Assembly (NCBI GenBank): GCA_050084515.1 | Contig: CM114271.1 | Location: 42,842,001 to 42,906,000, forward strand | Source: Blasia pusilla | Lineage: Eukaryota | Length of the DNA: 64,000 nucleotides | Direction: 5' to 3' | Part shown: one piece after another, positions 3,518-62,420 of the stretch | Layout of the letters: every line of letters starts with the position of its first letter | Position numbering within the stretch: position 1 is the stretch's first letter | The notes under the pieces: model-generated | The model's input: only the letters and a program-made list of their open reading frames with translations | Database searches by the model: none | Told to the model about the DNA's origin: nothing | Translations under genes and position numbers: made by a program

Positions 3518-3725
3518 AGATGGTTTTAAATAAACCTCCACAAGTATTTTTTTTAACACTATGTATAATCCATATGGTTTTTTGACCCAAGGTGGTGAAG
3601 TTTAGCCAAGATTATTATGTTGAGGTCATATTGTCAACATTTCTTCTTATAATCTAGATTGTGTGAGATTGACAAGTATACATCTTGACCTTATATCAAA
3701 TCAGTAGCAGTAGTAGTAGTAGTAG

Positions 3726-10672
<6,947 letters not shown>

Positions 10673-14483: not shown

Positions 14484-16232
14484 ATGGCGGGCCTCTGTGT
14501 CGCCTCGTGTGCCTACGCTGCCCCGATGCTGCATTGCCGACTGCCTTCGGTTTCCTCCTCTTCCTGCTCCGCTCCCAAACAACCCCAGCGTCATGCTCTG
14601 AGCCGATTCCGGCTGACATGCTCCGCTGCATCCTCGCTCAAACATCGGCCTCTTCAATTACGCGCAGGCAAGCTCCGCTTCGAGAACGAGTTCAGAGGTC
14701 AAGAGGTGGTCGTCTTCAGGAAACGGAGCAGTGGCACGCATAAGCAGTTGCGCTTGGGAGTACGCGCTTCCGCTGTCTTCGACCAGCTCAGTACCAGTCT
14801 GGAGGCAGCGTGGACGAAGCTCAGGAAGGAAAATGTGCTCACGAAGGAAAACGTGAAAGAGCCTATGCAAGAGATCCGACGAGCGCTGTTGGAGGCAGAT
14901 GTGAGCTTACCAGTGGTGCGCAAATTTGTGAAGTCAGTTTCGGAGAAAGCCGTGGGTGTAGGAGTCATCAAGGGGGTCCGACCGGATCAGCAGCTGGTGA
15001 AGGTCGTCAATGACGAACTGGTCGAGCTCATGGGAGGAAGCATGGCTGGAATTGAGTATGCCAAGTCAGGGCCGACAGTAATTCTGATGGCTGGGCTCCA
15101 AGGAGTGGGGAAAACCACCGCCTGTGGCAAGCTGGCTCTGTACTTCAAGAAAAAGGGTCAAAAATGTATGATGGTGGCCACCGACATCTACAGGCCTGCT
15201 GCCATAGATCAGCTGATCACTCTGGGTAAGCAGGTAGAGGTTCCCGTGTTTGAAGCGGGTACCGATGTAAAACCTGCAGAGATTGCGAAGAGGGGTTTAG
15301 CGGAGGCGAAGAAACTGGGAATCGAGGTTATCATAATCGACACAGCAGGGCGCCTGCAGGTAGATAGAGGAATGATGGAGGAGCTGAAGCAAGTGAAGAA
15401 TGCAGTGAATCCTAGTGAGGTGCTGCTGGTTGTAGACGCAATGACAGGGCAGGAGGCTGCAGCTTTGGTTGCCGCGTTCAATTTGGATTTAGGGATCACT
15501 GGTGCTATTCTTACCAAGCTGGATGGAGATTCCAGAGGAGGAGCCGCGCTCAGTGTGAAGGAGGTGTCGGGAAAGCCCATCAAATTCGTCGGAGAAGGCG
15601 AGGGCATGTTAGCACTGGAGCCGTTCTATCCCGACAGGATGGCTAGCCGGATACTAGGGATGGGAGATGTGCTCTCATTCGTCGAGAAAGCTCAGGAAGT
15701 AATGGTGCAGGAAGAGGCAGAGGAGATGCAGAAGAGGATTATGGAAGCGAAATTCGATTTCAATGATTTCCTGAAGCAAACCCGCAATCTCGCGCGCATG
15801 GGATCCATGAGTGGCCTCATTAAAATGATTCCCGGCATGAACAAGATCACTCCCCAACAGGTTTTAGAAGCGGAGAAGAGTCTCAAAGTGATGGAGTCGA
15901 TGATCAATTCCATGACTCCCAAAGAAAGGAAGGACCCAGAACTCTTGGCAAAATCTCCCTCTCGGAGAAGAAGAGTGTCTATTGGCTCTGGAAGGTCTCA
16001 AGAACAGGTGAGTCAACTTGTTTCACAACTCTTTCAAATGCGAGCGCGTATGAAGAATCTGTCTGCAATGATGCAAGGAGGATCGATCCCAGGGCTGGGT
16101 GGTCTGGAAGAGTCGCTCCAAGGACGCAAGGCCCCGCCTGGCACGGCAAAGAGGAGAAAGCAAAAGTCTGCGTTACAGCAGCAACTGTCAACTTCTGCAA
16201 GAAGCTCTGCGAAGGGTTTTGGAAGTAAATAG
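14484..16232 (+). CDS. cpSRP54: Chloroplast signal recognition particle 54 kDa subunit (cpSRP54/FFC), intronless, with N-terminal transit peptide
   Basis: 582-aa ORF with a Ser/Arg-rich transit peptide of about 95 aa. N domain [12 protein letters not shown]...[10 protein letters not shown] GTPase motifs [36 protein letters not shown] domain with SM and GSG; C-terminal [10 protein letters not shown] (cpSRP43-binding tail). Confidence 0.97.
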
Positions 16233-42110: not shown

Positions 42111-43839
42111 TTTGTTGTTGTGATGACTCAAGATGTTGCGAGAGTGACTGAGCCATAGAGAGGTGAATTTGAGATAGACCATGGGAGGAGAATAATGGCC
42201 GCTAGTCCAGGATTCCCCAATCTTTCACATTATTGAAGGTACTACACACACTGTCAATGGTGCGTGGATGAACAACGATGCCCATAGGTGGCACATATAT
42301 ATTGACATCACAAGGAGTTGGAGAGGCAAGGTGATGCAACGATCACATTGGCAATATTCGCCGATAGTGTTAGCTAGCCATGAGAGTTTTTGAAAGGGAG
42401 CATCCATGCAAAGGACATCCCAATAGCAGATAATCCTACTGGGGGACATGCTATAATTGGTGTCTGGTCCCATGGTATTGGTGCTAAGATCTCTTCATCA
42501 TTGTGGGATATGAGCAGGGATGTGTAGATGAGTTCCGACAAGGTAATGAGTTAGGAGTGGATCCATACTTCTATTCTAGGATAGAAAAAAGCAGGTGGTG
42601 ACGAGAATTGGGGATGTCGTCCCTACCTGCGGCCACTGCATCATAGAGCAGACGTAGATCTTTCTTGGTTATGTCCTCAGGGTTGTTGAAGTCCAGCCAG
42701 ATCGGGCAATTCTCCACCTTCCAATCAGACATGCTTTGAGCCATCTCCATGTCGTACATGGAAAATGTCTCTCCATCAGGCAAAGAAGCCCACAATTTGC
42801 AGGCTGCCGGTATTTTTTGCCATATACCTGCATTCTTACAATGGACGAGGTACCTGAATACCATAAGTTGGGTAGCTCTTAGTTTAGATGCATCGGCCGT
42901 CTGTTCCTGAAGATCTCGCTTATTCTTTGCGAAACCCCTTTTCTTCGCCTCTATTTCTTCATCAAGGTTTGCCTGAGGGTGGATCCTATCCTTGAACATC
43001 GTCTTGAAACCTGGGTTTTTTATGGGCTTGTCCCGCATGTCATACAGCCAAAGTTCAAAATCTTCAACACTCTCTAGGTTTGCTTCCTGCGGAACTGGCT
43101 CTATTCTTTTCAGCTCCACTTGGAGACCCGCCAGCATGGACTTCCCGAGAAGCCACAACGCGTCCTAGAATGACCGATCACGGAGCCAGTGGGAGATCAC
43201 TGGATTAGAGACACCCGGAGGATGGTGTACCTGTTTGGGCCTCTATGCCCTCGAGAGTGATTTTCATCAGTCGGATTCTCCTAAATTCCGAAATTCCAGA
43301 CAAGGAAAATCGATGCACGCAATTGAGAGACACTTTCTCCCCAATCTGACCTTGCGGATCTTCATCCCTCTTCCGGTGGCGCTTGATTATCGCTTTCAGC
43401 TCCTTGTAGAAATCGGGGCCAAGTTTGGGGTTGAGAATGGCAATGTAGCGCTGCATCTTGCTTCCTGTGTACTTCGTAGCTGCAGATACTGCATCTTGGA
43501 TGAACTTAGCATGCTCATACACAGACATTTTCTCCCTCCGCTCCAGCTCCAATGCAGCGCTCTTCTTGGCGGCATGTATCTTCGACCAGCAAAGGATTGT
43601 CACTACTGCATCTTGGGAAATAAATGTATTTGCCCAAGTCTTTTTTTTTTATTTGAGCACCCTTTGCCAACATCTCATTTACAAGGGCGTCGCCCAAGAA
43701 CCCCTTGTACTCTACCGGGTGCGTCGTTAGCACTTTCTTCACCTGATCGTAATCTTGGATCTAGTGGTGGGTGACATTCCCCTCTGATACAATCCTGCAC
43801 ATCCAAACTCAATATAAGAAATTTTGCAAGCTACATGGG

Positions 43840-44490
43840 TTCTTGCAACCCGTCGAACTCCGACAGGTTGTCACAGCTCATGGTCGAAATGGTAGCTACG
43901 AGCTAAATTTTGCAACCCATCGGAGTCCGACGGATTGCATTCAGATTTGTGATTGTGTGGTTTCAAGCTGTCGGAATCTGACGGGTTGTCTGATAATTTG
44001 TATGTAGAGAGTGGTCTCCACGAGAAAAGTGAACATATCAACCCGTTGGAGTCCGACAGGTTGCGCAATTTCAATTAAAACTGCAATTTGACGCCAAAAA
44101 TCTAGCTCCCCTACTACAATCACCTTCCCGTGTCAGCGAATGCAACCTGTCGGACTCCGACAAGTTGGTTTTGGCCAAAAACATCCAAAAACAGCTGCCA
44201 GTCAAGCAACTTGTCGGACTCCGACGAGTTGCTTTCTTCCAAAAACATCCAAAAACAATGGTTAGTCGAGCAACTCGTCGGACTCCGACAAGTTGCTTTC
44301 GGCCAAAAATATCCTAAACCAATGGTCAATCGAACAACTCGTCGGACTCCGAAGAGTTGCTTTCCGCCAAAAACATCCTAAACCAGTGGTCAGTCGAACA
44401 ACTCGTCAGACTCTGACGAGTTGCTTTTGACCAAAAACATCCCAAAAATAGTGGCGTGTGAAACAACTCGTCGGAGTCCGACAATTTGCA
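43840..44490. repeat. Intronic array of the 25-bp palindrome CAAC(C/T)(C/T)GTCGGA-N-TCCGAC(G/A)(G/A)GTTG, including six units at 64-65 bp spacing
   Basis: Palindrome starts at 44143, 44207, 44271, 44335, 44399 and 44464, with further copies at about 43846, 43914, 43968 and 44039. Confidence 0.9.
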
Positions 44491-44601
44491 GCAAGAGGAA
44501 ACTTACGTGTTCATGGCATGCATGGCCATCTCCACCGTCGCCATGTGATGAGGGTATGGATGAAGCACGACCGCCTTCACGCAAAAATGCGCCTCCAATG
44601 A

Positions 44602-45083
44602 GTTTGGGCGCTCCTCTGCAAACTGGGTCCACGACATGAACCTTTGGTTTCCATCCTAGATGAAGAAATACAGGTTCGACATCCAGTTGAATTTCGTCCC
44701 CTCAATCACCCTTATGAATTCCTGATCTCTCATCCTCCAGAATGTGTCGAGCGCTTCTAAGTCCTCCTCCGTAACCAGCGCTTGGGTTCCATGTTCATCG
44801 TAAGGCTGAAAATAGAATGGAGGGAAGCTGTCGACGTAGGATGTTTGGGCGCTCCTCTGCAAACTGGGTCCACGACATGAACCTTTGGTTTCCATCCTAG
44901 ATGAAGAAATACAGGTTCCACATCCAGCTGAATTCCGTCCCCTCAATCACCCTTATGAATTCTTGATCTCTCATCCTCCAGAATGTGTCGAGCGCTTCTA
45001 AGTCCTCCTCCGTAACCAGCGCTTGGGTTCCATGTTCATCGTAAGGCTGAAAATAGAATGGAGGGAAGCTGTCGACGTAGGAT
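44602..45083. repeat. 241-bp direct tandem duplication inside the ParB-like exon of copy A
   Basis: GTTTGGGCGCTCCTCTGCAAACTGGG... begins at 44602 and again at 44843. The segment is single-copy in copy B (about 53981-54221). Confidence 0.95.
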
Positions 45084-46194
45084 GTTGTCGCTGCCGATTG
45101 TTTCAGCTTCACAATATCCTCGTTAGACTGAATTTGGCGGACGTACTCCATTGTTCACAATCGGCAAAGTGGAATTCTCGGGGCGTTCTGGCCCTCCATC
45201 ACTGCCATCTGCTTTACCACCTCTCACAACGAGGACAAGGTCAATAAGCTACACTGAATTGCCAATGAATTGCAACATGGGTCTTCACATAACTCAAAGA
45301 ACAAAGATCGTATCTTACCCGCTCTAAGACTGGGTCGGTGTCTTGGCTAGCCAACTGCTCTGGGACAGCAGCTGGCAAGTCCACTGGAAACTTGTCGATC
45401 CGATAGAGGTCAATTTCTTCCGCCGGGCTTAGAGACAAGGAGGATCGCTCTCATGCTTCTTCAGCGATGTCCACCATCTCCACGCTGGCGGTCCTCATGA
45501 CCTCATCGTCCGTCACTTGAACTTCGGCTGTTTCCGCTATATTGATTGTGTCCCCGGACTTCATCGGGGACATTTCCTGCATCTCAACATTTCGGTTGGA
45601 CGGCCGGGCTTTCTTCAATGGAAATCACTTTTTCCCTCCGAGCTTTTGCCAATTCTGCTCTTCTCACCGACGCGTCCAGACGCTTATTTTCACGCTTTTT
45701 GTCGACGATCCTTTTCTTCAAGGCCTCTGACGCCTCAGCCTCTGCATCCTACTTTTCGAGTGCCTCCTTTACACGTTTTGCAAGAAGCTCTTGCTTGTGC
45801 ATCTCTGCTTCCCTTTCCCGCTCCTTGATTTCTTGCTGCCTTATCTCATTTGGCCAAACGAGGCCCTGGAGATGGTGACGTAAGAGTCCTCATGGAATTG
45901 GGAGTGAAGCTCCCAGCCTTGTTTCCTTGAGATTTTTTCCTTGTCATTGTTCCCAAAAATGCCTCCTATGGACAAGGAAATTGCTCTCTGTGCACGAGGA
46001 GTCGCCTTGCTAATGTCGTGATGAGTTGCCTTGATGAGTAGCTTGAATCGTCTCGCAATCGTCTCGCGATCGTTTGCTCGAATCGTCTCGCGATGAGTCA
46101 CGGTGTAAAGCGCCCCTTGGTATCTAGTCAGCTGTTGCGCGGAAGAGCAATTGAGATCGCGAAACAAAAAACCGGAAATGAGCGAACCCTCGCC

Positions 46195-47317
46195 TATTTA
46201 TACTTTTCAAGCCGTTGGGCTGAGTGTTGGGTCGCATTGTCGTTCCAACGGCGACGTGTCGGTCGTTATGGAAGTCTGGACGTGAAAAACACCAACCCGA
46301 CGGCTTCGACGGGTTGCACGCTTCCCGCGGATTTGAGGCATCCATCCTCCTGGCAACCCGTCGGAGACCGACAGGATGCGCGCCTTCGCCGTCTTCCGAC
46401 AAGAACGCGAGGTACCCGCGCAACCCGTCGGAGACCGGTGGGTTGCATGCTTCCCTCGTCTTGGGATAACAAGGCGGGCTACCCGCGCAACTCATCGCGG
46501 GCCGACAGGTTGCACGCTTCCTTCATGTAAGCGTTACAAGGCAAGGCACTTGCGCAACCCATCTGAGGTCGACGGGTTGCGCGCCTCCGCTGTCTTCGGG
46601 CAAGAAGGCGCGGCACGCGCGCAACTCGTCGGAGACCGACGGGTTGCACGCTTCCTTCATGTAAGTGTTACAAGGTGAGGCACTTGCGCAACCCATTTAA
46701 GGCCGACGGGTTTCGTGCCTCCGCCGTCTTCGGGCAAGAAGGCGCGGCACCCGCGCAACTCGTCAGAGACCGACGCGTTGCACGCTTCCTTCATGTTAGC
46801 GTTACGAGGTGAGGCAATTGCGCAACCCGTCCAAAGCCGACAGGTTGTACGCTTTGCTTATCTTGGGGTTATAGGTGAGGTACCAGGGCAACCCGTCGGT
46901 TAGCGACAGGTTGCACGCTTTTCTATCCCTTGCGACAACGCATAGTTCCGAGGCAACCCATTGCAATCCGACGGGTCACAAGATCTACCTTGAGTTGGAA
47001 AATCCCGCAAAAGTCCCCAAAAATTGGTTGCCTTAGCATATGCAAGCGATATCTCATGTTTGATGCTAGCAAAATCGACTCAAAAGACCATTGGTCAGCA
47101 AGAAGGGGGTACCAACCCAACGGACTCCGACGGGTTCCAACAAATAGAGGTGGGTGCTTCGCAACCAACGTCTCTGATTCCCAAATTTTGCAACCCACCT
47201 GACTCCGACAGGTTGCAAAAAAATTGAATCCATTGTGTCAGACATTCTCACCTACCAAACTTCATCTTGTCAGTCAAATTCTGTCAGGAGAATGTGAGTC
47301 CCTATTCACTATAAATT
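46195..47317. promoter_or_regulatory. Divergent promoter region between the two element genes, filled with palindrome repeats
   Basis: TATAAATA on the minus strand at 46195-46202 (TATAAACA at 55269-55276 in copy B) and TATAAAT on the plus strand at 47310-47316, upstream of ATG 47404. More than ten CAACCCGTCGGAG.CCGAC(G/A)GGTTGC-type repeats lie between them. Confidence 0.55.
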
Positions 47318-47403
47318 AAACATTCTCATTCTCATTCTCATACCCATTCCCATTTTTATCATCATTCTTATTCTCAATCTCCTCCCGGTGGAATCTTCTG
47401 GGA

Positions 47404-50283
47404 ATGGATAATTATGTGAAGCTCACTTGTGGCAGTCATCTAGCGGCCCTTCCTCAATCAGAAATCGTTCAACCGCAAGCTCGTGAGTCTTTCATAGCAG
47501 TGGATGAAATTTTTCTCTCTGTTCGATTTCTTCTCCAAATTGGAACCATCTTTGTATCCAAGGATGTTAGGGTGGACGGTACGGAAGACATAATAGTGCT
47601 TCAATTCCAGTGAAGACTAGTGCTTCAATTCCAGATGGTCCTTGAATTTTCTCCCGCCGCCAATGCGTTGGAACCCTCGAGTGTAGAAGTCCAGCATGCC
47701 CAGATCTAGAGCGCAACGGGCGGGTCAATACGTTGCAATTCCCCCCAAGAATGCAGAAACTCCATATGAGGTCGGTGCCACCACACCGCCGGGAGGCCAT
47801 CGATGTCCTCATTGTCAGGCATCCCCTTTCTGCATTGGAGCGTGTCCTGCATACATATTTTTCATTGTCCACGACTTGGGATCCACGTCACACTACACAA
47901 GGTTGGCAGTTCATGTTGGCTCCCACGCTCATCTTGTGACTGATGCAATTCAGAGACACATCAAGGAGGATGTGGCGAAGAAAGTGATCAAGCTCACAAC
48001 ACCATCACAAATTTGTGAACAATTGCTTGGAATCCCTAGACAGGGCGAGATCACGGCTGCAGAGGAGAAACAACTCCGGGAAAATCTCGCATTTCTCGCT
48101 AATCCTTAATACTTCCAGAATTTTTGCTACGTCAAATACTAGTACTGGATGGAAAGACGGCCAAAATGGATGCCATTGTCAGAATCAAGGCCAACTCTAG
48201 ATTTCCATTCATTCATAGATGGCAGTTCATGGGCCAGGGAGTCGAAGGATCCAGGGCCTATGTCTTCAAAATATCAACGACAGGTCCGTCAAGTGGCCTC
48301 GATCTTATAGATTGAATGAGGGAAGGGGAAGATCTTTACGGCAGCTGGGTAAGCTTTGATATTTGCTATAGAGTGCTGAACGGATAGTTGACAATGGGTG
48401 CTCACGCTTATGACCATGTGGAGAAGGGACTCAAAACTATATATTTATTTGAAGTAAAAGCAGAAGACGTTGGCAGTTTGAAGATGTGCTCGTTACTCTT
48501 ATTGGAGGTGGTGAAGGAAAAGAAAAGGCCACCTCCGGAAATTGATGGGTTCATGGCGGACAATGCACAACGTGGGTGGATTGCTATCAGGGAAGTATTC
48601 TAGGGTGGAGAGGTTCAACCGGAGAGGGAAAGGTCGGATGCTTTCCATTGGCAATAGTGTGTGACCCGGTACACCAAATCTTGCATCAAGGAGAATGAGA
48701 GGACAAAGCATGTCACTGTACTCCAACGCTGCAAGGATAGCAAAACCTTGAAATAGGCCAAGGAATGCCAAGAAGAACTTGATGGGTGGTGGAGGAAGCA
48801 TGCGATTGAGGGGAAGTACAAAGAGTTATGCTCTTGGCTGAGTTGGTGGACTATACGTATGAGACAATGGGGAAACTTCATACGGCAGGTGAGTTCACTA
48901 TTTTGTCTTGTCAAGCTCACGTTGAGAATTGCTTGAAAAGTTGCAGCTCAAGTTCAGAAGTGTGGGCACTATAGGGATTTCAAACCAAAGAAACCAAGCA
49001 ACTTGACGGATGCGACAGGTTGCCCGAGTGTGCAACCTATCAGAAACAGACAGGTTGGCCGAGTGTGCAACCAGTCGAAAACCGACAGGTTGCATCAATA
49101 ATTTTGGTGCAACCCGCATACAAGTATGCAAGTTGCATGTATACAAGGCCTGAAAATAGTTCGACCCGGATGGGTTTCGGATGACTTGCACTTGGATCTT
49201 CCAGCCCGGAGTGGCCAAAGGTTCTTGCAACCTGTCGGAATCAAACGGGTTGCAGTAGGTGCTTCCTGGGTGTTGCAACAGATTGGGACCCGATGGGTCG
49301 CAGAGTCGTTCATGGGATGCCTCGGCCTTGCAGCCCGTTTGGTTCCGACAGGTAGCTGATTTCTTTGACTTTTGAGTTATTTTCATTCCCTTCTCACACT
49401 GCCGTCGTTGCAGGGATGGAACATTTATGAAAATGCCCTCTGCCCCAACACAAGTGGAGCAAAAAGTGTTCATTCCTCCTGGAGGTCGTCACAACCATGC
49501 CAAAGAATTTCACTTGTGGAGGCATGCCGACAAGACCAGGCAAGAGCAATGCTACAGTCTGCAGCATCCCATATCTTCCTCACAAAAGGCATAACAAAAG
49601 GAAGGGGGCCTTCGATCTACGAGCTCTATGTCAGGGCGGCTATGAGATCGAGTGATGAAAAACTCTATGTGGAAGCCTTCAACCAGTGCATAGCAAGAAC
49701 TCCCCTCGAGCAAGACGTACACATTGGTGGGGATATTCGTGGGCGCGTTTCAAGACGTCCCATACAGATGGTGGTAGAGCAGTCCGAGCGAGACTCGTGG
49801 AGACCAGATAAGTATCTTGACTTCAGGAAAGTGAAGAGGCATCATCGAGGAACGAATCCGGTGATTGATTTGGATGAGGAAATCACGCTGCCCAAGTATT
49901 CGGGGACCCCGGACTGCTCCCAAATCCATGATGGAGTAACTTCTCCAAAATCAGTGAATGTTTTATTTCAAAAGCCAAAAATGGAGATCATCGCCACCAA
50001 AGATGTACACAGTGGCAATGGAATAGGAAGGATGTATTTGGTGAGGAACAACACTATAAATTCAAGTATCATAGGGATGTATGTGGTGCACATCTGTTGC
50101 TTTCCCACATGTTCATGTGATGACTTTGTCCAAAGAGAGACAAGTGGCAAAAGGTATTTCCCTTGTAAGGCCATGTACTATGTGTTGCTTGTAGTTTTAA
50201 GAGAGTCGGAAGTAGGAGTAGGAATCCACCAACCAATTCTGTCCCTCAAAGAAGTGCGAAGTACTTTAAACAAACCACTTTGA
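47404..50283 (+). pseudogene. Mutator-like (MULE) transposase with N-terminal GCM/WRKY-type zinc finger and C-terminal SWIM, copy A
   Basis: RRQCVGTLECRSPAC...HRCPHCQASPFCIGAC...RLAVHVGSHAH (GCM-like); VSFDICYRV, EVKAED, FMADNAQRGWIAIREVF, SDAFHW (MULE core); intron 48889-49413; PNTSGAKSVH; SWIM YVVHICCFPTCSCDDF...PCKAM. Has stops and a 633-bp in-frame deletion relative to copy B. Confidence 0.85.
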
Positions 50284-51012
50284 GGATGCAAAATAAAGTT
50301 TTAGATTGTACTTTCATTTGTCCAGAACCTTCACTTTGAGCTTGAACTCCATTCAACCCAGGGCAAATGATAGATTTTTTCCAGACCTTGGATGGAAAAA
50401 GTGATTGGTTCCACACTTATGATTCCACTGATTTTTCAGTTTTTTAAATTTGGTGCAATTTGCAACTCGTCGAACTCGGATGGGTTGCCAAAATATGGAA
50501 TAGGAAAAAAAAAACTGTGGGAGTGCTTAAGAACTGAGCAAAAAAGTGCAAAAAAAATCACACAAAAAGTTTCCTCTCTTCAAATCACATGAAACTCTCT
50601 TCAAAAAAAAGTATCTCTTTGGGTTGAAGGTAGTTTCCTCTCTCCTCTCTCCTTTCTTCCTCTCTTCCTCTCCTCTTACCGCACCTCACGTGTCGAAATC
50701 CGACAGGTTGCTTGGAAGTGGTTAAGAAGAGGCAGTGGTCAAAAAGTGAAAAGTTGCAACCCGTGAGAATCCGATGGGTTGCAAAATAAACTCTTGGAGT
50801 ACATAGATGATCACAATCGACAAGACCAAAAAAGATATTCAGCAAACTTTTACAAACACCATAATCGTTCAAAAAAATCTTGTGCTTTATAACATCCGAA
50901 GGAAGCTCGGAACTGTACATTTGATCTATTCTATGAATTCTTGTGCCTCATCATCAAATAAATCCCTACTCCAAAACGTTGTAGTCAAGTTGGGTCCTTG
51001 AGTTCTTTAAAT

Positions 51013-51402
51013 TCACTTGTCATCGTCCGAGAGCTTTTCCATAATTACTCTCGTTCTTGCCCTCCCGATTTTCGGAATCATGGGAAGTGACAATGGTATC
51101 ACTACCAATGGTGGGTATGGAACCAGAGCTCTTGGCTTTGGAGGAGAGTTGAACGCCCCAACTAGCCTGTCATAATCTGCCTTTGCCTCTTTGAAAAGGT
51201 CAAACAGGTCCTGCCTTCCCTCAAGGCAGAGAATGTTCCTGCCACTTTGCCAAACGCCTCTAATACTCGCCCCTGAAAGGCCCACTAAGTCGAACACTAA
51301 GTCACCCGGCCTTGAGCAGAGCTCGATGAGCGTTTGCATCAAGGCTGGCGACTTTTCCCTTCCTCCAAGTAAGGGGGTACCGTCTTGAATGTAAATTCCC
51401 AA
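51013..51402 (-). other. DNA amino-methyltransferase (N6_N4_Mtase-like) SAM-binding segment
   Basis: EKSPALMQTLIELCSRPGDLVFDLVGLSGASIRGVWQSGRNILCLE aligns by eye to the beta-class consensus QKPxxLxxxLIxxxSxPGDxVLDPFxGSGTTxxAAxxxGRxxIGxE (motifs X, I and II). Confidence 0.7.
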
Positions 51403-53399
51403 GGGGGGGGATTTTATAAACTATCTAAGTTGTACCCATCGGAGCATGGATCCACTAGATCCAGGATCTTAAACACTTGGAAGTTGTGCTCAGGCCGAAC
51501 AAAGCACTAAACATAGGAGTGGTCTATCTGTAAAGAAGTAGGTTGGAAGCAATGTCAGCAACAAGAAAGAGCTACTTCACCGCTGGTCTACTCTCAGTAT
51601 GGTGACACAATCTGCAACACGTCCCCAAAGAACTTCGCTTAACCCTATAGAACTTTATTATAGTCCTAACATTAGAGAAACCTGTCAGAGTCCGACGGGT
51701 TGTTTTATAAGTGTTAGTGATTTTTTTTGCCATGAGCAACCCGTCGCAAGCCGACAATTTGCTGGCTTAGAGCAACCCATTGTTGGCTAAGAGCAACCCA
51801 TCGCTTTCAGACGGGTTGCATCATTCCAGAAACACAAGGAAAAGCATAAGCATTTGCACCCGTCTGATTCCGACGAGTTGCAAGTGCTTACGCTTTTCCC
51901 GAGTCTGAGGTCGGCTTGTTGGGGTCTCTATTACCTCGGACTCTGTTGGAGTTTTCTTGGCGGAGGACCTGATCCGGCCCTCTCTCCCCGCTCGCCCGGA
52001 CAATTCCGCCTCTCGCCTTGAATTCTCAACCTCTTTTTTGGAAGACTCCGCCTCGAAATTCTTCGATCCCCTCGCCTTTTCTTTCGGACCCGCTGTAGAT
52101 TTGTCCTTGGCGATGACGACCTTGGACACCAACTCCCTTGTCTCGAGGGCTTGCTCCTCCGCATCTCCTTCGAAAAAGTCTTCAGGCTGCACAAAATTTG
52201 GGATGTCGTCCCTACCTGCGGCCACTGCATCATACACTCGTCAAAAATTATTGTCGGTGATGTCCTCGAGGTCGTTGAACTCCAGCCAGATCGGGAAATT
52301 CTCCACCTCCTAGTCAGACATGCTTTGAGCCATCTCCATCAGGCGGAGAAGCCCACAATTTGCAGGCTGCCGGTATTTTTTGTCAGATACCTGCATTCTT
52401 ACAATGGATGAGGTACCTAAACACCATCCATTGGGGAGCTCTTTGTCGAGATGCATCGGCCGCTTGCTCCTAAAGATGTTGCTTCTTCTTTGCAAAATCC
52501 CTTTTTTTCGCCTCTATTTCTTCATCTTGGTCTGCCCGAGGGAGGATGTGATCCTTGAACATCGTCTTGAAGCCTGGGTTTTTCATGGGCTTGCCTCGAA
52601 TGTCATCAAGCCAAAGTTCAAAATCTTCAGCACTCTCCAAGTTTGCTTCCACCGGAACAAGCTTTATTTTTTTCAGCTTCGCTTGGAGACCCACGAGCAT
52701 GGACTTCCCGAGAAGCCACAACGCGTCCCAGAATGACCATTCACGGAGCCAATGGGAGATCACTGGATCAGAGGATGTTGTGCCACCCTCTTTTGGGCCT
52801 CTATGCCCTCGAGACTGATTTTCATCAGACGAATTCTCCTAAATTCTGAAATTCCAGACAAGGCAAATCTATGGACGTGGTCGAGAGACACTTTCTCCCC
52901 AATCCAACCCTACGGACCTTCATCCCTCTTCCGCTGGCGCTTGATTATCGCCTTCAGATCCTTGTAGAAATCGGCGCCAAGTTCAGGATTGAGAATGGCA
53001 ATGTAGCGCTGCATCTTGCTTGCAGTGTATTTCATAGCTGCAGATACTGCAGCTTGGATGAACTTAGCACGCTCAGACGCAGACACGTTCTCCCTCCGCT
53101 CCAGCTCCAATGAAGCGCTCTTCTTGGTGGCCTGTATCTTTGACCAGCAAAGGATTATCACGGTTGCATCTTGGGAAATAAATGTATTTTCCCAAGTCTT
53201 TTTTTTTATTTGAGCCCCCTTCACCAGCATCTCATTTACAAGAGCGTCGCCCAAGAACCCCTTGCACTTTGCCTGGTGCGTGGTCAGCACATTCTTCATC
53301 CGGTCGCAATCTTGGATCCAGTGGTGGGTGACGTTTCCCTCGGATACAATCCTGCACATCCAAACACACTATAAGAAATTTTTGCAAGCTACAGGGGTT

Positions 53400-53850
53400 C
53401 CTGCAACCCATTGGACTTCGACAGGGCGCTACACCTCATGGTCAAAATGGTAGCTAAGAGCTAAATATTGCAACCCATTGGAGTCCGACGGATTGCATTC
53501 AGATTTGTGATTGCCTTGTTACAACCCGTCGGACTCCGACGGGTTGTCAGATGATTTGTATTGTGAGAGTGGTTTCGGCGGAAAAAGTGAACATATCAAC
53601 CCGTCGGAGTCCGACAGGTTGTGCAATTTCAAGTAAAGCTGCAATTTGATGCCAAAAATCAAGCTCCCCTACTCCGATCACCTACCCGTGACGGCGAATG
53701 CAACCCGCCGGAGTCCCACGAGTTGCTTTCGGCCAAAAACATCCTAAAAACAGCGGCTAGTCAAGCAAGTCGTCGGACTCCGACGAGTTGCTTTAAGGCA
53801 TACGATGTTTTGTTACCACTAGTTAAACAACTCGTCGGAGTCCGATGGTT
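53400..53850. repeat. Intronic palindrome array, copy B
   Basis: Perfect copy CAACCCGTCGGACTCCGACGGGTTG at 53522-53546; others at about 53404, 53471, 53597, 53701, 53764 and 53828. Confidence 0.9.
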
Positions 53851-55669
53851 TGCAGAAATTAAAATAAAGGAAGAGGAAACTTACGTGTTCATGGCATGCA
53901 TGGCCATTTCCACCGTCGCCATGTGATGAGGGTATGGATTTAGCACGACTTCCTTCACGCAAAAATGCGCCTCCAATGAATTTGGGCGCTCCCCTACAAA
54001 CTGGGTCCACGCCATGAACTTGTGGTTTCCATCCCACATGAAGAAATAGAGGTTACGCATCTTGCTGAATTTTGTCCCCTCAATCACTCTTCTGAATTCT
54101 TGATCTCTCATCCTCCAGAATGTGTCGAGCGCTTCCAAGTCCTCCTCTGTCACGAGCGCTTGGGTTCTATCTTGATTGTAAGGCTGAACATAGAACGGAG
54201 GGAAGCTGTCGACGTAGGATGGTGTCGCTGCCAACTGTTTCAGCTTCGCAATATCCTTGTCAGACTAAATTTCACAGATGTACTCCATTGTCCGTAATCG
54301 GAAAAGTGGAATTCTCCGGGCATTCTGGCCCTCCATCAATGCCATCTGCTTTACAATCTGTCATAAAAGGGACAAAGTCAATAAACTACACTGAATTGCC
54401 AATGAATTGCAACATGGGCCTTCACATAACTCAAAGATCAAAGATTGTTTCTTACCCACTCAAAGATTGGGTTGGTGTCTTAGCCCACCAATTTCTCTAG
54501 GACAACAGTTGGCAAGTCCACTGGAAACTCGTCGATCCGATATTGGTCGATTTCTTCTGCCGGGCTCAGAGACGAGAAAGACTGCTCTCCTCCTTCTTCA
54601 GAGATGTCCACCATCTCCACGCTGGCGGTCCTCATGACCTCATCGTCCGTCAGTTGAACTTTGGCCGTTTCCTCAGTCGATTTTATACTGATTGTGTCCC
54701 CGAACTTCATCGGGGAAATTTTGTGCATCTCCACACTTTCGGTTGGACGGGCCGTGCTTTCTTCTATGGCAATCTCTTTTTCCCTTCGAGCTTTTTCCAA
54801 TTCTGCTCTCCTCACCGACACGTCCATACGCTTCTTTTCACGCTTTTCCTTGGCAATCCTTTTCTTCAAGGCCTACGACGCCTCAGCCTCTACGTTCTAT
54901 TTTTCGAGCGCCTCCAAAACACGTTTTGCAAGAAGCTCCCGCTCCTCGATCTCTTGCAGCCTTATCTCATTGGTCGAACGAGGCCCTGGAGATGGTGACG
55001 CAGGAGGCCTCATGGACTTGGGAGTGAAGCTCCCAACCTTGCTTGCTTGAAATTTTTTTCCTCATCATTGTTCCCGAAAATGCCTCCTCCTCGACAACGA
55101 AGTTACTTTCTGTGCACGATGAGTCGCCTTGCTGATGTCACGATCAGTCGCTCGAATCGTCTTGCGATGAGTCACCGTGTAAAGCGCCCCTTGGTATCTG
55201 GTCAGCTGAAGCGCGGAAGATCAATCAAGATCGCGAAACGAAAAACCGGAAATGAGCAAACCCTCGCATGTTTATACTTTTTGAGCCGTTGGGTTGACTG
55301 TTGGGTCGCACCTTTATTCCGACGGCGACGTGTTGACCGTTATGGAAGTTTGGATGTGAAAACCACCAACCCGACGGCTCCGATGGGTTGCACGCTTCCC
55401 ACGGGTTGCAGGCGTCCGTCCTCCTTGGGTTAAAAAGCTGAGCTATCCTGGCAACCCGTCAGAGACCGACAGGTTGGGCGCCTCCTCCGTCTTCGGGCAA
55501 GAACGCGAGGTACCCGCGCAACTTGTTGGAGGCCGACGGGTTGCACGCTTCCCTCATCTTGGGGTAATAGGCGAGGTACCTGGGCAACCCGTCGGTTATC
55601 GACATGTTGCACGCTTTTCTATCCCTTGGGTAACAATGCGATAACGCATAGTTCCGAGGCAATCCCTTG

Positions 55670-58600
55670 CAATCTGGATGTCGTCAACCTCAGTGGATTT
55701 GGCCGACACCAACCTAGACCTCTGTCCGCCTACTCGTTCCTCTTGCGAGTATCAGGCAATATTTTGCTATCGTCTCTGGCCTTGAAAATGTTCAAGCACA
55801 TTCTTCTCGACGAGCTGGCGCCCACGTACGATGGTAATTGCATTTTTGAGTTGCCTCTACTTGCTGCTCCTACTCAAAAGAAAGATGGAGGACGCTTGAA
55901 GGGTATGGACAGAAAGTCTGATTTGTCATCGATGGTGTAGGCTTCAACAAACTAGTGCTTCAATTCCAGATGGTCCTTGGATTATCTCCCATCGCCAATG
56001 CGTTGGAGCCCTAGAGTGTAGAAGTCCAGCATGCCCGTATCTAGAGCACAACGAGCGGGTCAATACATCGCAATTTCCCCCCCAAGAATGTAGAAACTCC
56101 ATATGAGGTCGGTGCCACCATACCGCCGGGAGGCCATCGATGTCCTCATTTTCAGGCATCCCCTTTCTACGTTGGAGCGTGTCCTGCATACATATTTTTC
56201 ATTGTCCACGACTTGGGTTCCACGTCAGAGTACACAAGGTTGGCAGTTCATGTTGGCTCCCACACTCATCCTGTGACCGATGCAATTCAAAGACACATCA
56301 AGGAGGATGTGGCAAAGAAAATGGACGAGGTCTTTAGAAACTCTCCAGGTTCAAAGCCCGGAATGATCAAGTTAACAACAACATCACAAATTTGTGAACA
56401 ACTACTTGGAATCACGGCTGCTGAGGAGAAACAACTCTGGGAAAATCTCGCATTTCTCGCTAATCTTGAATGCTTTCGGAATTTGTTGCGTCAAATACGG
56501 GTATTGGAAGGAAAGGCGACTGAAATGGATGGCATTGCCAGAATCAAGGCCAACTCCATATTTCCATTCATTCAGAGATGGCAGTTCATGGGCTAGGGAG
56601 GCGAAGGATCCAGGGCCTATGTCTTCAAAATATCAACGACATGTCCGTCGAGTGGCCTCGATCTTATAGATCGAATGAGGGAAGGGGAAGATCTTTACGA
56701 CAACTGGGTAAGCTTTGATATTTGCTACAGAGTGCTGAATGGATAGTTGACAATGGGTGCTCACGTTTATGACCATGTGGAGAAGGGACTCAAAACTATA
56801 TTTTTTTGTGAAGTAAAATTAGAAGACGTTGGCAGTTTGAAGATGTGTTGTTACTCTTATTGGAGGTGGTGAAGGAAAAAAAAAGGCCACCTCCGAAAAT
56901 TTATGGGTTCATGGCGGACAATGCACAACCTGGGTGGATTGCTATCAGGGAAGTGTTATGGGGTAGAGAGGTTCAAAGGGAGAGGGAAAGGTCGGATGCT
57001 CTCCATTGGCAACAGTGTGTGACCCGGTACACTAAATCTTGCATCAAGGAGAATAAGAGGATAGAGCATGTCACTCTACTCCAACGCTCCAAGGACAGCA
57101 AAACCTTGAAATAGGCCATGGAATGCCAAGAAGAACCTCATGGGTAGTGGAGGAAACATGCGATTGAGGGGAAGTACAAAGAGTTATGCTCTTGGCTGAG
57201 TTGGTGGATTGTACGAATGAGACAATGGGGAAACTTCATGCCGCAGGTGAGTTCACTAATTTGTCTCATCGAGCTCACGCTGAAATTTTTTTGAAAAGTT
57301 GCACTTAAAGTTGAGAATCGTGGGCACTATAGGGATTTCAAACGGAAAAAACCAACCAACTTGTCGGATGCGACAGGTTGCCTGAGTGTTCAACCCGTCG
57401 CTAACCGACCAGTTGCCTAAGTGTACAACTAGTCGGAAACCACGGGTTGCAAGTCGCATGGCCAAATTTACTTGCAACCCGTCTGAATCCGACGGGTTGA
57501 CGGGTTTCCTGAATGTGCAACCGGTCGGAAAAGGACGGGTTGCAAGTCGCATGGCCAAATTTATTTGCAACCCGTCAAAATCAGACGGGTTGCACTAGGT
57601 GGTTCCTAGGTGTTGCAACACCTCAGGAACCGACAGGTCGCAGAGTCGTTCATGGGATGCCTTGGCCTTGCAACCCGTCTGGTTCCGACAGGTAGCTTAT
57701 TTCTTTGACTTCTGAGCTATTTTTGTTCCCTTCTCAGATAAGGGTCGTTGCAGGGATTGAACATTCATGAAAATGCCCTCTGCCCCAACACAAGTGGAGC
57801 AGAAATTGTTCATTTCTCCTAGAGGTGGTCACAAGCATGCCAAAGAATTTCACTTGTGGAGGCATGCCAACAAGACCAGGCAAGAGCAATGCTACAGTCT
57901 GCAGCATCCCATATCTTTCTCACAAAAGGCATAACAAAAGGAAGGAGGCATTCAATCTACGAGCTCTATGTCAGGGCGGATGTGAGATCTGGTGATGAAA
58001 AACTCTATGTGGAAGCCTTCAACCAGTGCATAGCAAGAACTCCCCTCGAGCAAGACGTACATATTGGTGGGGATATTCGTGGGCGCGTTTCAAGACGTCC
58101 CATACAGATGGTGGTAGAGCAGTCCGAGCGAGACTCGTGGAGACCAGATAAGTATCTTGACTTCAGGAAAATGAAGAGGCAGCATCGAGGAACGAACATG
58201 GTGATTGATTTGGATGAGGAAATCACGCCGCCCAAGTATTCGGGGACCCCGGATTGCTCCCAAATCCGTGATGGAGTAACTTCTCCAAAATTTATGAATG
58301 TTTTATTTCAAAATCCCTCAGTTGCTGGAAGTTCGCAACATCCAGTCGCTGGGATGGTTCAACAATATGGGATTCCGGTCATGGAGGTGGATTGCAACCT
58401 GAAACGGTGGCATATATCTCGTAGCAACCCTGGACGTGGACCCACTTGCAGGGCAGGATCTGATGGCATTAGGAGAGCATGCGGCACTTTCCTAAATAAG
58501 AACTGTACAAGGACTGGACGACCACTGCTTGGGTTTTGGGGACTCAAAACCTTTGATTGTTTCACGAGGACCGGAGATCAATTGAAGTACTTCTTCTGCC

Positions 58601-59256
58601 CAAATGAATCTTTCGCTTTACGGAAGTCTTATTCGGTTGCCATTGGAGCTCCGGGGAATACCCCCGTGATTTTGCCCATCGCCGTAGGTACGAATTGCAC
58701 TCAAGATGAAGTGGACAATCTTACAAGTGTCGGTTTTAGACTCATAGAGAGAGGAAGTTTAGAGCATATTTGCATTACAGAGACCTTCGCATTTTGTATT
58801 CAACCCAAGATTGATGTCAACATGTACCTGGAGAAGATGGATGATCTCAATCCACTATTTCTGTTTGAGTCTAGAAATGGGGTGAAGAGAAAAAGAATGT
58901 GTAGGCCAACGGTGGAGAGAGCAAAGCGAATTGCATCAGCTCTAGAGGAAAAAATGGAGATCATTGCCATCAAAGATGTCCACAATGGCAATGGAATAGG
59001 AAGGATGTATTTGGTCAAGAACAACACTGTAAATTCAAGTGTCATAGGGGTGTATGTGGTGCACATCTGTTGCTTTCCCACATCTTCATGTGATGGCTTT
59101 GTCCAAAGAGAGACAAGTGGCAAAAGGTATTTCCCTTGTAAGCACATATACTATGGGTTGCTTGTAGTTTTAAGAGAGTCGGAGGTAGGAGTAGGAATCC
59201 ACCAACCAATTTTGTCCCTCAAAGAAGTGCGAAGCATTCTAAACAAACCACGTTGA
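55670..59256 (+). pseudogene. Mutator-like (MULE) transposase with GCM-type zinc finger and SWIM, copy B (5' end deleted)
   Basis: PTYDGNCIFELP...GMDRK; HRQCVGALECRSPAC...RLAVHVGSHTHP; VSFDICYRV; FMADNAQPGWIAIREVLW...SDALHWQQC; intron 57247-57753 (GTGAGT...TTGCAG) full of palindromes; PNTSGAEIVH (candidate catalytic E); 466-aa ORF 57856-59256 ending in SWIM (PTSSCDGF...PCKHIYY). Confidence 0.85.
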
Positions 59257-59671
59257 GGATGCAAAATGAGGTACTAGATTGTACTTTTATTTTCCAAAAC
59301 CTTCACTTTGAGCTTGAACTCTATTCAGCCCAATGCAAATGATAGATTTTTTCCAGACCTTGGATGGAAAAAGTGATTGGTTCCACACTTATGATTCCAC
59401 TGATTTTTCAGTTTTTAAAATTTTGTGCAAATTGCAACTCGTCGGACTCACATGGGTTGCTAAAATGTGGAAGAGAAAAAAATTATGTGGGAGTGCTTAA
59501 GAACTGAGAAGAAAAATGCAAAAAAAATCACACAAAAAGTTTCCTCTCTTCAACCCAACAGAAACTCTCTTCAAATCATAGGAAACTCTCTTAAAAAAAA
59601 AGGTATCTCTTTGGGTTGAAGGTAGTTTCCTCTCTCCTCTCTCCTCTCTTCCTCTCCTCTTACCGCACCTC

Positions 59672-62420
59672 CCTTTCCTTCCTCGCTTGGGAGTGCGGTG
59701 GCGTGTACGTCTCTTCCATTTGGATTTTGGGTCCTCTCCGGAGTCTGTGGACCTCGTCGTGCCATCCGTGGAGGCTTCGGTGTCTATAGGGGACGCTTTG
59801 TCTTGTGAGGAAGAGCTTGTGTGCGAAGAGCCTTGCCGTTGATGACGCCATCTTCACATTTTTTGGGACTTCTTGGAGGCTTCGTACGCCTGTGCTGATG
59901 CGATGACTGCTTCTAGAGAGTCTCGTTGGCCCCGACACCGATACTTATCCATCTCCTTGGAGAGTTCCGACACAAAGTAGACTACCAATTGTGAGGTGGT
60001 TGTGTGGTCGAGTTTGTTAACAAGACTTCGGAACCTTTGGGTGTATTCCCTCAGGGTTTCCTTCTTTTTCCGTTTCAAATCCCGGAGCTTCGTCAGAAGC
60101 GTGTCCTCGAACTTCAAGTCGTAAAATTCATGAAGAAAGGCCTCAAGTACCCTCTTCCAGGTTTCAATGACCTCCGCTCCTAGACCCTCGTACCACTGAC
60201 TTGCCCGCTACTTTAGGAGGTCCGAGAATACCTGTAACAAATCCTCCTCCGAGCCTTCCCCATTAGCCTTAGCTACATGGGTAAACTCAAGCACAAAGTT
60301 ATCGACGTCATCTCTTTGTCCTACCGTGAACGTAGGATATCTTAGCAGCGTCTTTCTAGTGTTACCCATTGGAAAATTTCAGAGGCTAGGTCTCGGACTT
60401 GATGTTCGGGAAGGAGGAGGTAGAGGTTCCCATCTGATCGATCTGGCCAGCCCCTCGTCTCCTTCGTACCCAAAGGGATTCTAGGTTGACTCTTCGTCCG
60501 ACTGCAAAGTGGCAGGAGACGTGCTGGGGATAGCACTCATGTCCCTCTTCTTGATCTTCGGCTTTGTTCAAGGACAAAGTCTGGGAGATACACCCGTCGG
60601 TCTCCAAGACGAATGATCTTTGTGTTGCTTATTGCGTCGGTCAGCTTGCTGATCCCAAGCGGATGGCTGGGAGACTTCCATGAGTCCCTCTTGGGATTCG
60701 GGAGCTTGCTTCCGCATCCACGATTGCAACAAGGTATGGGTCCATGGGGAGAAATTGGATCTTCCTAATTCCTACGGGAGTGTGAAGGTGCTCTCAATCT
60801 ACCTGCCAGGTTTTCCGCCCATAAATAGAAGTATCGGGTCATCACCAAGTACAATTGACGTTCATGGGCAAAGCATCGTTCGGCGACGGGTTCTTTGACA
60901 ATACTAATTAGTTGTTCTATCTTCTCTAGCACTAATGCAGCAAAAAGATTGCTATCTTCTTCTATCCATTGTCTCAGGGGGATAGCTAGAGATAGGAGAT
61001 GATCTTCTGTGAGAACTAGAGGGTTGGATCTCCTAGGCGACGAGGCTTCTTCCCCCGGCCGGGGGTTACCTATCAGTCTCTCTCTTTCCAACAAATCTTA
61101 TGATCCCCGGCAGTGGCGCCAAAAGTTTGTTGCTATATGTAATATACAGGAGGTATAAGAATTGATCTTTTACATTAATTTAATGAGTTCGATCCCCAAG
61201 AGGATCATGATTATGTGGAAAGAGAGGTCAAGATGTCGTTTATCTTGTAATAGTTGTTATTAAGTGTATATAATTCAGATTCAATGACTTATCAATGTGT
61301 TCAGATCTCTCTTAGTACCAAGATTTCTTTCCTTGATTCTCTGTAGTGGAATTGAAATCACGCTCAAGTATATCTTCACTCAACATCAAAGAACGTCATA
61401 GAGACCTCAACAAGAAGATGGCTTCTCCGACTTTCGGAACTCAATCCGTCTAGGCACGCTACTCTCTGTCGAACAAAATTCTTACAACTCCGTATTGATT
61501 ATTCTAATGATGAAAGTGTTCTCTTGATTGACTCTTCACTCTGCAGACCCAATGAGAATACTCAGGCATATGCATCGCACATCAGAATGAAGAAATGAGT
61601 ACTTTACTACTCCATCAAGAATGACAAAGCTTCAAAAAAGTGTACAAAAACGAGAGGGTACTACTCTCTTGCTCGGACCATTCCTATAGCATAAGGACTT
61701 CGTAAAAGAATGATGGGGATAGCTACTTTCATGCCTCTTAAATATTCTCCAAAGTATGAGTGGTTCTAAGGATTCGAAACGTTCTTGAGGAATATGGTGT
61801 CTCTTCAAAATTTGTAACTACCTAGATCTATGGTGCTCTTTTCTTTTCCTATGATCCCTGTGAATCCGCTGAGCGTAACTATACTAACTTCCTATTTGAT
61901 AAAAAATTCGTGCCTCTTCCTACTCTAATTGTTCTAAGAGTGTGCCGCTTGAAATCACTTCGAGTCTTAGCTTCGCTTTGCTGCGAAGTCTGGACCTCTT
62001 GTGCTTCACTTGAAGACGAAGCTCTTTCTCCTAATCTGAAGACGAAGCGCTCCATTCTTCGCTCTTATTCCAGGGGCTTCGTTCTTCGTGCTTCGATAAA
62101 GAGCAAAGTACTTCTTCCTCTTCTTCTTCATCATGTTTCGTTCAAGAGTGAAGCACTTCATAAACAGGTTCTTAATAAGGCTTTGTTGTCTTTTCCAAGC
62201 TTCGCTCTTAGTCTTTAGACTTCATTATTGCATTTCTATCTCCTCTAAGGCAAATCCTTGATTTTTCATCTCTCTGCCTTTTCTTAGGAGCTTCATGATT
62301 TCTTTCAATATTAGTCATTCTTCTACTACACAAACATAATATCCAAAATCATTATGTATACACAAGTTTTCTTCGAATAAAAAGCTCTAAATCTTCAAAA
62401 GTACAAAATTGCGGGCATCA
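59672..62420 (-). mobile_element. Athila-like Ty3/gypsy 5' part: LTR (61128-62420), PBS and truncated gag
   Basis: The minus-strand LTR runs TGATGCCCGC...AGCAACA. The PBS TGGCGCCACTGCCGGGGAT (61103-61121) is of the Athila type. Retrotransposon gag KFEDTLLTKLRDLKRKKKETLREYTQRFRSLV (59854-60117). Truncated at 59672. Confidence 0.8.

Follow-up and report, generated by a model that had tools for sequence, protein, structure and literature searches.

What is a gene for a ParB-like protein with a methyltransferase-like tail doing beside a transposase-like gene in Blasia pusilla, and why does one palindrome fill the spaces around both? These features lie in a stretch of 64,000 nucleotides (assembly GCA_050084515.1, contig CM114271.1, positions 42,842,001 to 42,906,000 of the forward strand), hereafter the window, in whose own numbering all positions are given. 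Two long units, copy A and copy B, each carry the transposase-like gene on the plus strand and, divergently from it, an accessory gene on the minus strand (Table 1). The explanation that we favour, with a confidence slightly above even, is that they are the decayed remains of two copies of a plant-type (eukaryotic) DNA transposon encoding a DDE transposase and a ParB-methylase-like accessory protein, predicted to recognise the palindromes and so to mark or shield the element's own DNA. Dimers of the accessory protein would recognise the palindromes, and this recognition would concentrate the methyltransferase-like domain on the DNA of the element, which it might then mark or shield from silencing by the host, as proposed for algal transposons. 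The anatomy, the gene families, the fold-level resemblance to ParB/Srx, the partial resemblance to methylases, the confinement of the palindromes to the unit and a second locus with gene and array, all described below, are observed; that the accessory protein binds the palindromes, that it is active as an enzyme and what this would serve are inferred.

Self-BLAST of the window placed the two copies head-to-tail, 42606-50664 matching 52195-59656 in nine collinear blocks with 80.5-92.7% identity, and boundary refinement put the last bases shared by them at 50687 (copy A) and 59671 (copy B). The two tandem units with a divergent gene pair that had been read in a preliminary description of this DNA are thus borne out. 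Between the copies lie 1,507 bases (50688-52194) that are present once in the window; they carry the 3′ part of the copy-B minus-strand gene, namely a charged linker and the methylase-like tail, together with six palindrome sites (two near 50685-50782 and four at 51677-51881). Starting about 180 bp past the right boundary of copy B there is an open reading frame (ORF) of the Retrotrans_gag/Ty3-capsid type (59854-60207, minus strand, E 4.4e-12), and insertion of a retrotransposon may have cut the unit at this point.

The minus-strand gene belongs to a genuine family of eukaryotic proteins, about 1,200 aa long. By tblastn it is collinear with a hypothetical protein of the liverwort Riccia sorocarpa (P0083, 1,207 aa) over residues 165-746 and 1092-1175, and in both copies the palindrome-bearing intron behind the ParB-like exon starts with a GTAAGT donor and ends with a CAG acceptor. 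These canonical splice sites and the homologous family confirm the divergent, intron-containing gene described before. With the ParB-like exon (53884-54264) as query, an exhaustive search of representative sequences retrieved 80 proteins (E ≤ 1e-3), of which six reached E ≤ 1e-10. Among the 30 relatives looked up, 12 were hypothetical proteins of R. sorocarpa and one belonged to a fern, Adiantum nelumboides; the longest two proteins of Riccia measure 1,191-1,207 aa, and many diverged, fragmentary paralogues occur within this single liverwort genome. From its N- to its C-terminus the protein consists of a ParB/Srx-like domain, a conserved middle part, a charged linker and a domain resembling beta-class methyltransferases. 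A word-based homology search with the ParB exon, set for longer lengths, gave no match, which reflects its limited sensitivity, since the exhaustive search gave 80. No relatives of this exon were found in metagenome contigs, nor relatives of P0108 and P0109 in IMG/VR contigs. In prokaryote genomes the only relative at the sequence level lay on a contig with introns that had been binned into a cyanobacterial assembly, and the bacterial or phage origin suggested earlier for this gene is not supported. Three Riccia members (P0081, P0083 and P0084) bear the UniRef name 'Trimethylguanosine synthase'. This label had no Pfam backing and was set aside; it looks like an automatic mislabel, because the sole Pfam lead in these proteins is the DNA methylase family PF01555.

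What kind of domain does the conserved N-terminal exon encode? The AlphaFold2 (AF2) model of the window exon reached a predicted local distance difference test score (pLDDT) of 91.2, using an alignment of 56 of the 80 matches from which the longest proteins and short fragments (24 in all) were omitted. Ranked by structure with VIA, its first seven neighbours, all at low scores, were KorB, PadC, Spo0J, two sulfiredoxins, a serine kinase and the N-terminal domain of pNOB8 ParB. Foldseek searches of PDB and BFVD returned nothing at E ≤ 0.001; their weak top rows were Noc, Spo0J, ParB, KorB and phage ParB-like proteins. The GxxR/DGHHR-type motif expected of the ParB/Srx superfamily after the central strand is present in the family as WDGNHR, nearly invariant over 57 sequences (D78, G79, H81 and R82 at least 90% conserved, N80 invariant), and reads WDGNHK in the window. 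Profiles of the family (A1 and A3) recovered no ParB chain among PDB sequences, two of the 57 members matched the DndB profile (E 0.028), and the Protein Atlas offered, as leads, ParB_N in 11% of one cluster, DUF6551 and DUF3723. We interpret the exon as encoding a divergent domain of the ParB/Srx fold.

The other end of the protein resembles part of a methyltransferase. The ORF at 51016-51420 aligns to residues 1092-1175 of P0083 and matches PF01555 with E 9.5e-4 (19.6 bits) over profile positions 165-220 of 221, that is, its last 56 positions; residues 22-69 of this tail align to M.RsrI (E 0.0065). The same end of PF01555 is matched by the Riccia proteins P0081, P0084 and P0083 (E 9.4e-6 to 5.2e-5), and the methylase-like region also matches NCBIfam PRK13699 (E 0.0025). 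Motif X and motif I stand at the C-terminal end, in the beta order, with a strand resembling motif IV upstream of them in P0083. A search by tblastn with intact relatives found no catalytic half in the window. At the level of known structures, phmmer of P0084 against PDB sequences gave no match, and family profile A2 reached M.RsrI at E 0.17 only.

On the plus strand, the evidence comes mainly from a contig outside the window, L005 (contig C80, 1-4101), which encodes a transposase-like protein at least about 1,195 aa long, split between exons of 719 and 476 aa. These exons align to 55815-57258 and 57763-59241 of copy B, and the read-through translation of copy A matches the uninterrupted 719-aa frame with E 2.4e-37; because it matches this uninterrupted ORF, we take the plus-strand gene to be real. 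Copy B reads as a Cys/His finger, a D..D..DALH core and a last exon of 477 aa ending in a SWIM-like finger, and the order of the family is Cys/His finger, D, D, CxxH (DALH in the window), N..E(S/T) and a canonical CxC..CxH SWIM-type finger. In the alignment, the core motifs MFDH, FMADS, CLFH and NLAETVHN of L005 correspond to SFDI, FMADN, DALH or DAFH, and SLVEAC in the window. Read in this way, the gene has the Mutator signature, a DDE core in which C/DxxH follows the second D and the third acidic residue lies in N..E(S/T). Copy A lacks, in frame, 636 bp of the last exon (gap at 49973-49977, against 58314-58949 in copy B), a Cys-rich segment kept in copy B and L005. Pfam, PDB and word-based homology searches with queries from this gene (the 477-aa exon and the read-through P0088) gave no match; the Protein Atlas gave, as a lead, SWIM with a score of 0.85, and in a genome search the intact L005 exon matched Transposase_mut below its cut-off on the D2-CxxH region (E 0.0157).

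Both genes are embedded in palindromes. A 25-nt pattern allowed three mismatches gave 24 matches in the window, all in 43846-57592, with 0.00 expected from 100 shuffles, and a 27-nt consensus allowed seven mismatches in 26 positions gave 50 sites, all in 43845-59460, with none in each of five shuffles of the window. The restriction of the palindrome to the unit within the window, claimed beforehand, therefore holds. The 50 sites form nine clusters at corresponding places in copies A and B, namely in the minus-gene intron behind the ParB-like exon, between the two divergent genes, in the gap of the plus gene and in the 3′ regions, and all non-coding parts of the unit carry the palindrome. An exact match was sought in metagenome contigs and none was found. 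Does the symmetry reflect a hairpin? The arms change independently of each other: of 600 pairs between them 448 are Watson-Crick, where the null gives 447.5 on average and 976 of 2,000 shuffles reach the observed value, and 11 arm changes are compensated as against 146 one-sided ones. Because the arms do not covary, the symmetry belongs to the motif and not to a selected hairpin, as would be expected for the binding site of a dimer, and a reading in terms of hairpins or RNA structure was dropped. The 27-bp palindrome contains four CpGs. Departures from the consensus are C>T or G>A in 112 of 206 cases, 63 of these 112 at CpG, a pattern that fits the decay of methylated DNA.

Gene and palindrome array occur together again at a second, distant locus. 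A motif scan with a small ParB alignment over contigs of prokaryote genomes led to L001, an intron-bearing contig of 4,691 bp in an assembly titled uncultured cyanobacterium, which carries an intact ParB-like exon (552-1184) and a 548-aa ORF with a methylase-like region. The donor site after its ParB exon shares its codon position with that of the window gene. Within positions 1-400 a palindrome of about 60 bp occurs four times with a period of about 107 bp, 150 bp upstream of the ParB-methylase gene, and within the assembly this array occurs on that contig only. The palindromes of the window and of L001 differ in sequence and have a TCGGA/TCCGA centre in common, GTCGGA-N-TCCGAC in the window and CTCGGATCCGAG in L001, which could reflect related DNA-binding domains or chance. 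L005 belongs to the same assembly bin; no palindrome array was found on this transposase contig, and its protein was found in none of 400 other genomes of the same phylum. L001 is plainly eukaryotic because of its GTAAGT introns, and we take L005 to be a stray eukaryotic contig because its exons align to the plant-type gene of the window and the phylum is otherwise devoid of the protein; both look like mis-binned eukaryotic DNA. The orientations of their ends are compatible with the divergent layout of the window. Window anatomy and L001 together support the preliminary description of a transposon-like unit with a DDE-type transposase, a divergent accessory gene and palindrome arrays of its own.

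Neither copy in the window is alive, a point absent from that description. Compared with the open L005 frame, the DDE region of the copy-A transposase has five in-frame stops and that of copy B three in-frame stops and a frameshift, and in the last finger each copy has lost a different zinc ligand. The minus-strand gene is broken as well: in copy B the ParB exon has an in-frame stop at 54265-54267 and the gene is frameshifted where copy A keeps a single ORF (42574-43164), and in copy A the gene is truncated at 42606 and a tandem duplication breaks the frame of its ParB-like exon. The ratio of nonsynonymous to synonymous substitution rates between the copies, 0.38-0.85 over eight segments, points to relaxed constraint and hints that part of the divergence predates the loss of function. 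Both copies are pseudogenes, incapable of acting themselves. The value of the locus is therefore that it points to a family.

How well does the reading as a self-marking transposon stand up? Several results weigh against it. At the homology boundaries no terminal inverted repeats (TIRs) were found, only palindrome-to-palindrome matches, and no target-site duplication (TSD) either. The linkage of the two genes is seen in the window only, L001 and L005 being separate contigs and copies A and B not being independent of each other. None of the 57 accessory members matches the Pfam ParB models (ParB_N at a cut-off of E ≤ 0.1). At the methylase end, no protein reaches the PF01555 gathering score (the best, P0081, has 26.2 bits against 26.7) and the matches cover only the part that binds S-adenosylmethionine (AdoMet); the place of (D/N/S)PP(Y/F/W), located by eye, reads DLPTG, DMPSG, DVPFG or DVPED in intact relatives; and the AF2 model of this domain in P0084, from a six-row alignment, has a pLDDT of only 35.1. 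The intact L005 exon matches Transposase_mut (PF00872) with E 0.038 and 13.3 bits against a cut-off of 21, on the D2-CxxH region, and the transposase family, aligned by hhalign to four IS256-type transposases, reaches a probability of 1.4%. The labels of the preliminary description can be set beside these results. Its ParB/Srx-like domain is supported by the motif and the low-scoring structural neighbours, with no Pfam ParB match; its beta-class methylase segment in copy B is supported by a motif X-I end with sub-threshold resemblance to PF01555, with no catalytic half in the window; and its GCM-finger/MULE-DDE/SWIM gene stands as a DDE-type gene with finger and SWIM motif order, but the Pfam GCM, MULE, FAR1 and SWIM models do not match it and the labels are a reading of motifs. 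Membership in Mutator, which it had also claimed, is not supported by the profile score, the hhalign result or the TIR search. Enzymes of MuDR-type Mutator elements (Mutator-like elements, MULEs) have an N-terminal zinc finger, a DDE core with C/DxxH and a C-terminal SWIM finger, the order met here, whereas the plus gene departs from them in its profile matches and in the absence of visible TIRs and TSDs. The motif order thus fits the Mutator superfamily, with membership lacking statistical support.

Could the transposase then belong elsewhere, for example to a CACTA/Plavaka-, Zisupton- or Sola-type superfamily, with the accessory gene a cassette mobile between transposon families? The only profile lead is Transposase_mut, on the expected region, and the order finger, D..D..CxxH..N..E(S/T), SWIM fits Mutator-type enzymes, so we hold this unlikely; the absence of a significant Mutator profile match and of a long TIR would agree with it. 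So would the red-algal precedent, in which homologues of Plavaka accessory genes sit in Mutator elements of Chondrus, the cassette occurs in several superfamilies, and families were first misclassified as MULEs through the accessory genes that they share (bioRxiv 10.1101/2025.02.11.637652, in its account of these genes). A doubt that carries somewhat more weight, though the alternative still appears less probable than not, concerns the accessory protein, which might be no active methyltransferase but a degenerate AdoMet- or DNA-binding module acting on the palindromes as a scaffold, a nucleoside triphosphate-dependent clamp, a nuclease or an anti-silencing factor. The aberrant catalytic motifs and the recognition by profiles of the motif X-I end only speak for it, as does the DGNHR motif, which we take to be similar to motifs of ParB-like nucleases and nucleoside triphosphatases. 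However, the domain is kept in Riccia, in Adiantum (a partial gene model), in L001 and in the window tail, which suggests a conserved function, and the Adiantum motif retains an aromatic residue. The opposite and most ambitious version, in which intact bryophyte and fern members would be active self-targeting amino-methyltransferases whose ParB-like module loads on the CpG-rich palindromes and whose tail writes N4-methylcytosine or N6-methyladenine that blocks silencing based on 5-methylcytosine (5mC), strikes us as improbable.

Transposases of many superfamilies bind repeated subterminal motifs, and the palindromes might accordingly be binding sites of the transposase Cys/His finger, or else a short foldback repeat that multiplied inside the element, with no relation to the ParB-like protein. 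Sites do lie near both 3′ regions of the unit, but they also fill introns and the central intergenic region and not just the ends; moreover, the array of L001 stands directly upstream of the ParB-methylase gene, whereas the transposase contig L005 has none, and in red algae the arrays adjoin the ParB-like gene specifically (bioRxiv 10.1101/2025.02.11.637652, in its account of the arrays). We regard this alternative as distinctly unlikely. Finally, the adjacency of the copies and the failure to find ends, TIRs or TSDs would also be expected of a tandemly duplicated, decayed pair of host genes. The DDE/CxxH/SWIM layout of the plus gene, the many diverged and fragmentary accessory paralogues in one liverwort genome and the pseudogene state of both genes here make such a pair very improbable, and close analogues sit in transposons (PMC12477816, in its passage on the accessory gene).

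Table 1. Features of the window, with positions in its own numbering.
Feature	Position	Strand	Place or basis
Copy A of unit	42606..50687	.	left side cut off inside minus gene; self-BLAST blocks, refined homology end
Copy B of unit	52195..59671	.	self-BLAST blocks, refined homology end
Single-copy segment between repeats	50688..52194	.	no second copy in window; ORFs, palindrome scan
Accessory gene, copy A	42574..46000	-	truncated at 42606; start near 46000 approximate
Accessory gene, copy B	51016..55061	-	intron-bearing; tblastn, ORFs, stop at 54265-54267, splice sites
ParB/Srx-like domain, copy B, WDGNHK motif, one in-frame stop	53884..54354	-	
Methylase-like tail, motif X and motif I AdoMet-binding part only	51016..51420	-	PF01555, M.RsrI, P0083 alignment
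242-bp tandem duplication in copy-A ParB-like exon	44602..45086	.	44602-44845 against 44843-45086, 98% identity; breaks frame
Transposase-like gene, copy A	47649..50283	+	self-BLAST, read-through, L005 alignment
Transposase-like gene, copy B	55815..59256	+	tblastn of L005 exons, read-through translations, alignment
Palindrome cluster, 10 sites, partly 64-bp period	43845..44489	.	copy-A minus-gene intron
Palindrome cluster, 12 sites, including 67-bp-period array	46353..47216	.	divergent intergenic region, copy A
Palindrome cluster, 4 sites	49032..49356	.	gap of copy-A plus gene
Palindrome sites, 3	50462..50782	.	around right boundary of copy A
Palindrome sites, 4	51677..51881	.	copy B, linker exon to methylase tail; expected place of methylase catalytic half
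Palindrome cluster, 7 sites	53403..53853	.	copy-B minus-gene intron
Palindrome sites, 3	55451..55610	.	divergent intergenic region, copy B
Palindrome sites, 6	57390..57696	.	gap of copy-B plus gene
Palindrome site, 1	59434..59460	.	near right boundary of copy B

Elsewhere in the window, an uninterrupted ORF of 617 aa (14379-16229, plus strand) has a long N-terminal extension followed by SRP54_N, the SRP54 GTPase (E 3.5e-74) and SRP_SPB; it is probably a host gene without introns for an SRP54 of the plastid type, the plastid assignment being an inferred one. Two related reverse-transcriptase ORFs on the minus strand (4457-5554 and 9445-10380; RVT_1, E 1.8e-26 and 1.4e-13) are likely two copies of one retrotransposon lacking long terminal repeats (non-LTR), and a long GA-type microsatellite at 3689-4156 (plus strand) reads in one frame as a run of glutamate-arginine repeats.

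Is a self-marking transposon without precedent? In Arabidopsis, VANC of VANDAL21 is an accessory protein thought to act on repeated motifs in the non-coding DNA of its element and to change its epigenetic state. The accessory protein proposed here would resemble VANC in being encoded by the transposon and directed to the element's own motif; VANC, however, lacks ParB and methylase domains and brings about a loss of 5mC, and no homology is implied. The pairing of a ParB-type N-terminal domain with a DNA-modifying enzyme is found, according to the sections on these modules, in phages and plasmids, as methylases of ParB-terminase loci (PMC4738411) and as ParB-dependent thymine dioxygenases (PMC13229309), which unlike the window gene are prokaryotic and intron-less. 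For eukaryotes, the passage concerned in Iyer et al. mentions ParB-linked methylases from chlorophytes, chytrids and haptophytes, and few N6A methylases in land plants (PMC4738411). Within bryophytes, the Marchantia N4-cytosine methyltransferases MpDN4MT1a/b are likewise amino-methyltransferases of prokaryote type; compared by description only, they differ in being sperm-expressed host genes with a canonical TSPPY motif, and the passages on them mention neither a ParB domain nor a link to transposons (bioRxiv 10.1101/2021.02.12.428880).

The closest parallels are algal, and the word 'undescribed' in the preliminary description was too strong (PMC12477816; bioRxiv 10.1101/2025.02.11.637652). 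In Ectocarpus, the passage on the accessory gene of Sola1-1_Ec32 describes a 1,104-aa protein, ParB-like and with a predicted N4C/N6A methyltransferase, encoded on the strand opposite to the transposase, and its authors propose that it binds and modifies its own transposon (PMC12477816). The size of about 1,100 aa, the domains and the opposite strand are shared with the family described here; the Sola1 transposase, the 21.5-kb length and the brown-algal host are not, the likeness is one of description only, and that passage makes no mention of a palindrome array (PMC12477816). For the Plavaka elements of Bostrychia and other red algae, the sections on accessory genes report a PF01555 methylase and a ParB-like 2-oxoglutarate (2OG) oxygenase, tandem inverted-repeat arrays adjoining the ParB-like gene and mostly degenerate copies, and state the idea of self-modification (bioRxiv 10.1101/2025.02.11.637652). 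PAG2 and PAG3 of these elements share with the window a ParB-like N-terminus recognised only by remote homology, the PF01555 methylase, the inverted-repeat arrays and the degenerate state; they differ in that the ParB-like part is fused to the 2OG oxygenase and the methylase to SET, in two proteins, whereas the window family has one protein (bioRxiv 10.1101/2025.02.11.637652).

As far as these accounts go, the idea of a transposon with its own sequence-targeted DNA-modifying protein dates from 2025 and has been put forward for brown and red algae only. Searches of the full-text literature turned up no land-plant description of such transposons, and the supplementary tables of the algal papers may list more taxa. 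If intact members were active amino-methyltransferases, they would form the first transposon-encoded amino-methylation system in land plants, and might be a reservoir for the recruitment of host enzymes such as those of Marchantia. The algal-type design, a ParB-like accessory gene of DNA-modifying type divergent from a DDE transposase gene, is found in both window copies, and the locus is a dead land-plant-type member of a kind of transposon already described for brown and red algae. Together with the Riccia and Adiantum relatives and the gene-array locus L001, the window extends this design to land-plant-type genomes, where one protein family and one defined palindrome make a testable pair for the question of whether plant transposons, like those proposed in algae, mark their own DNA.

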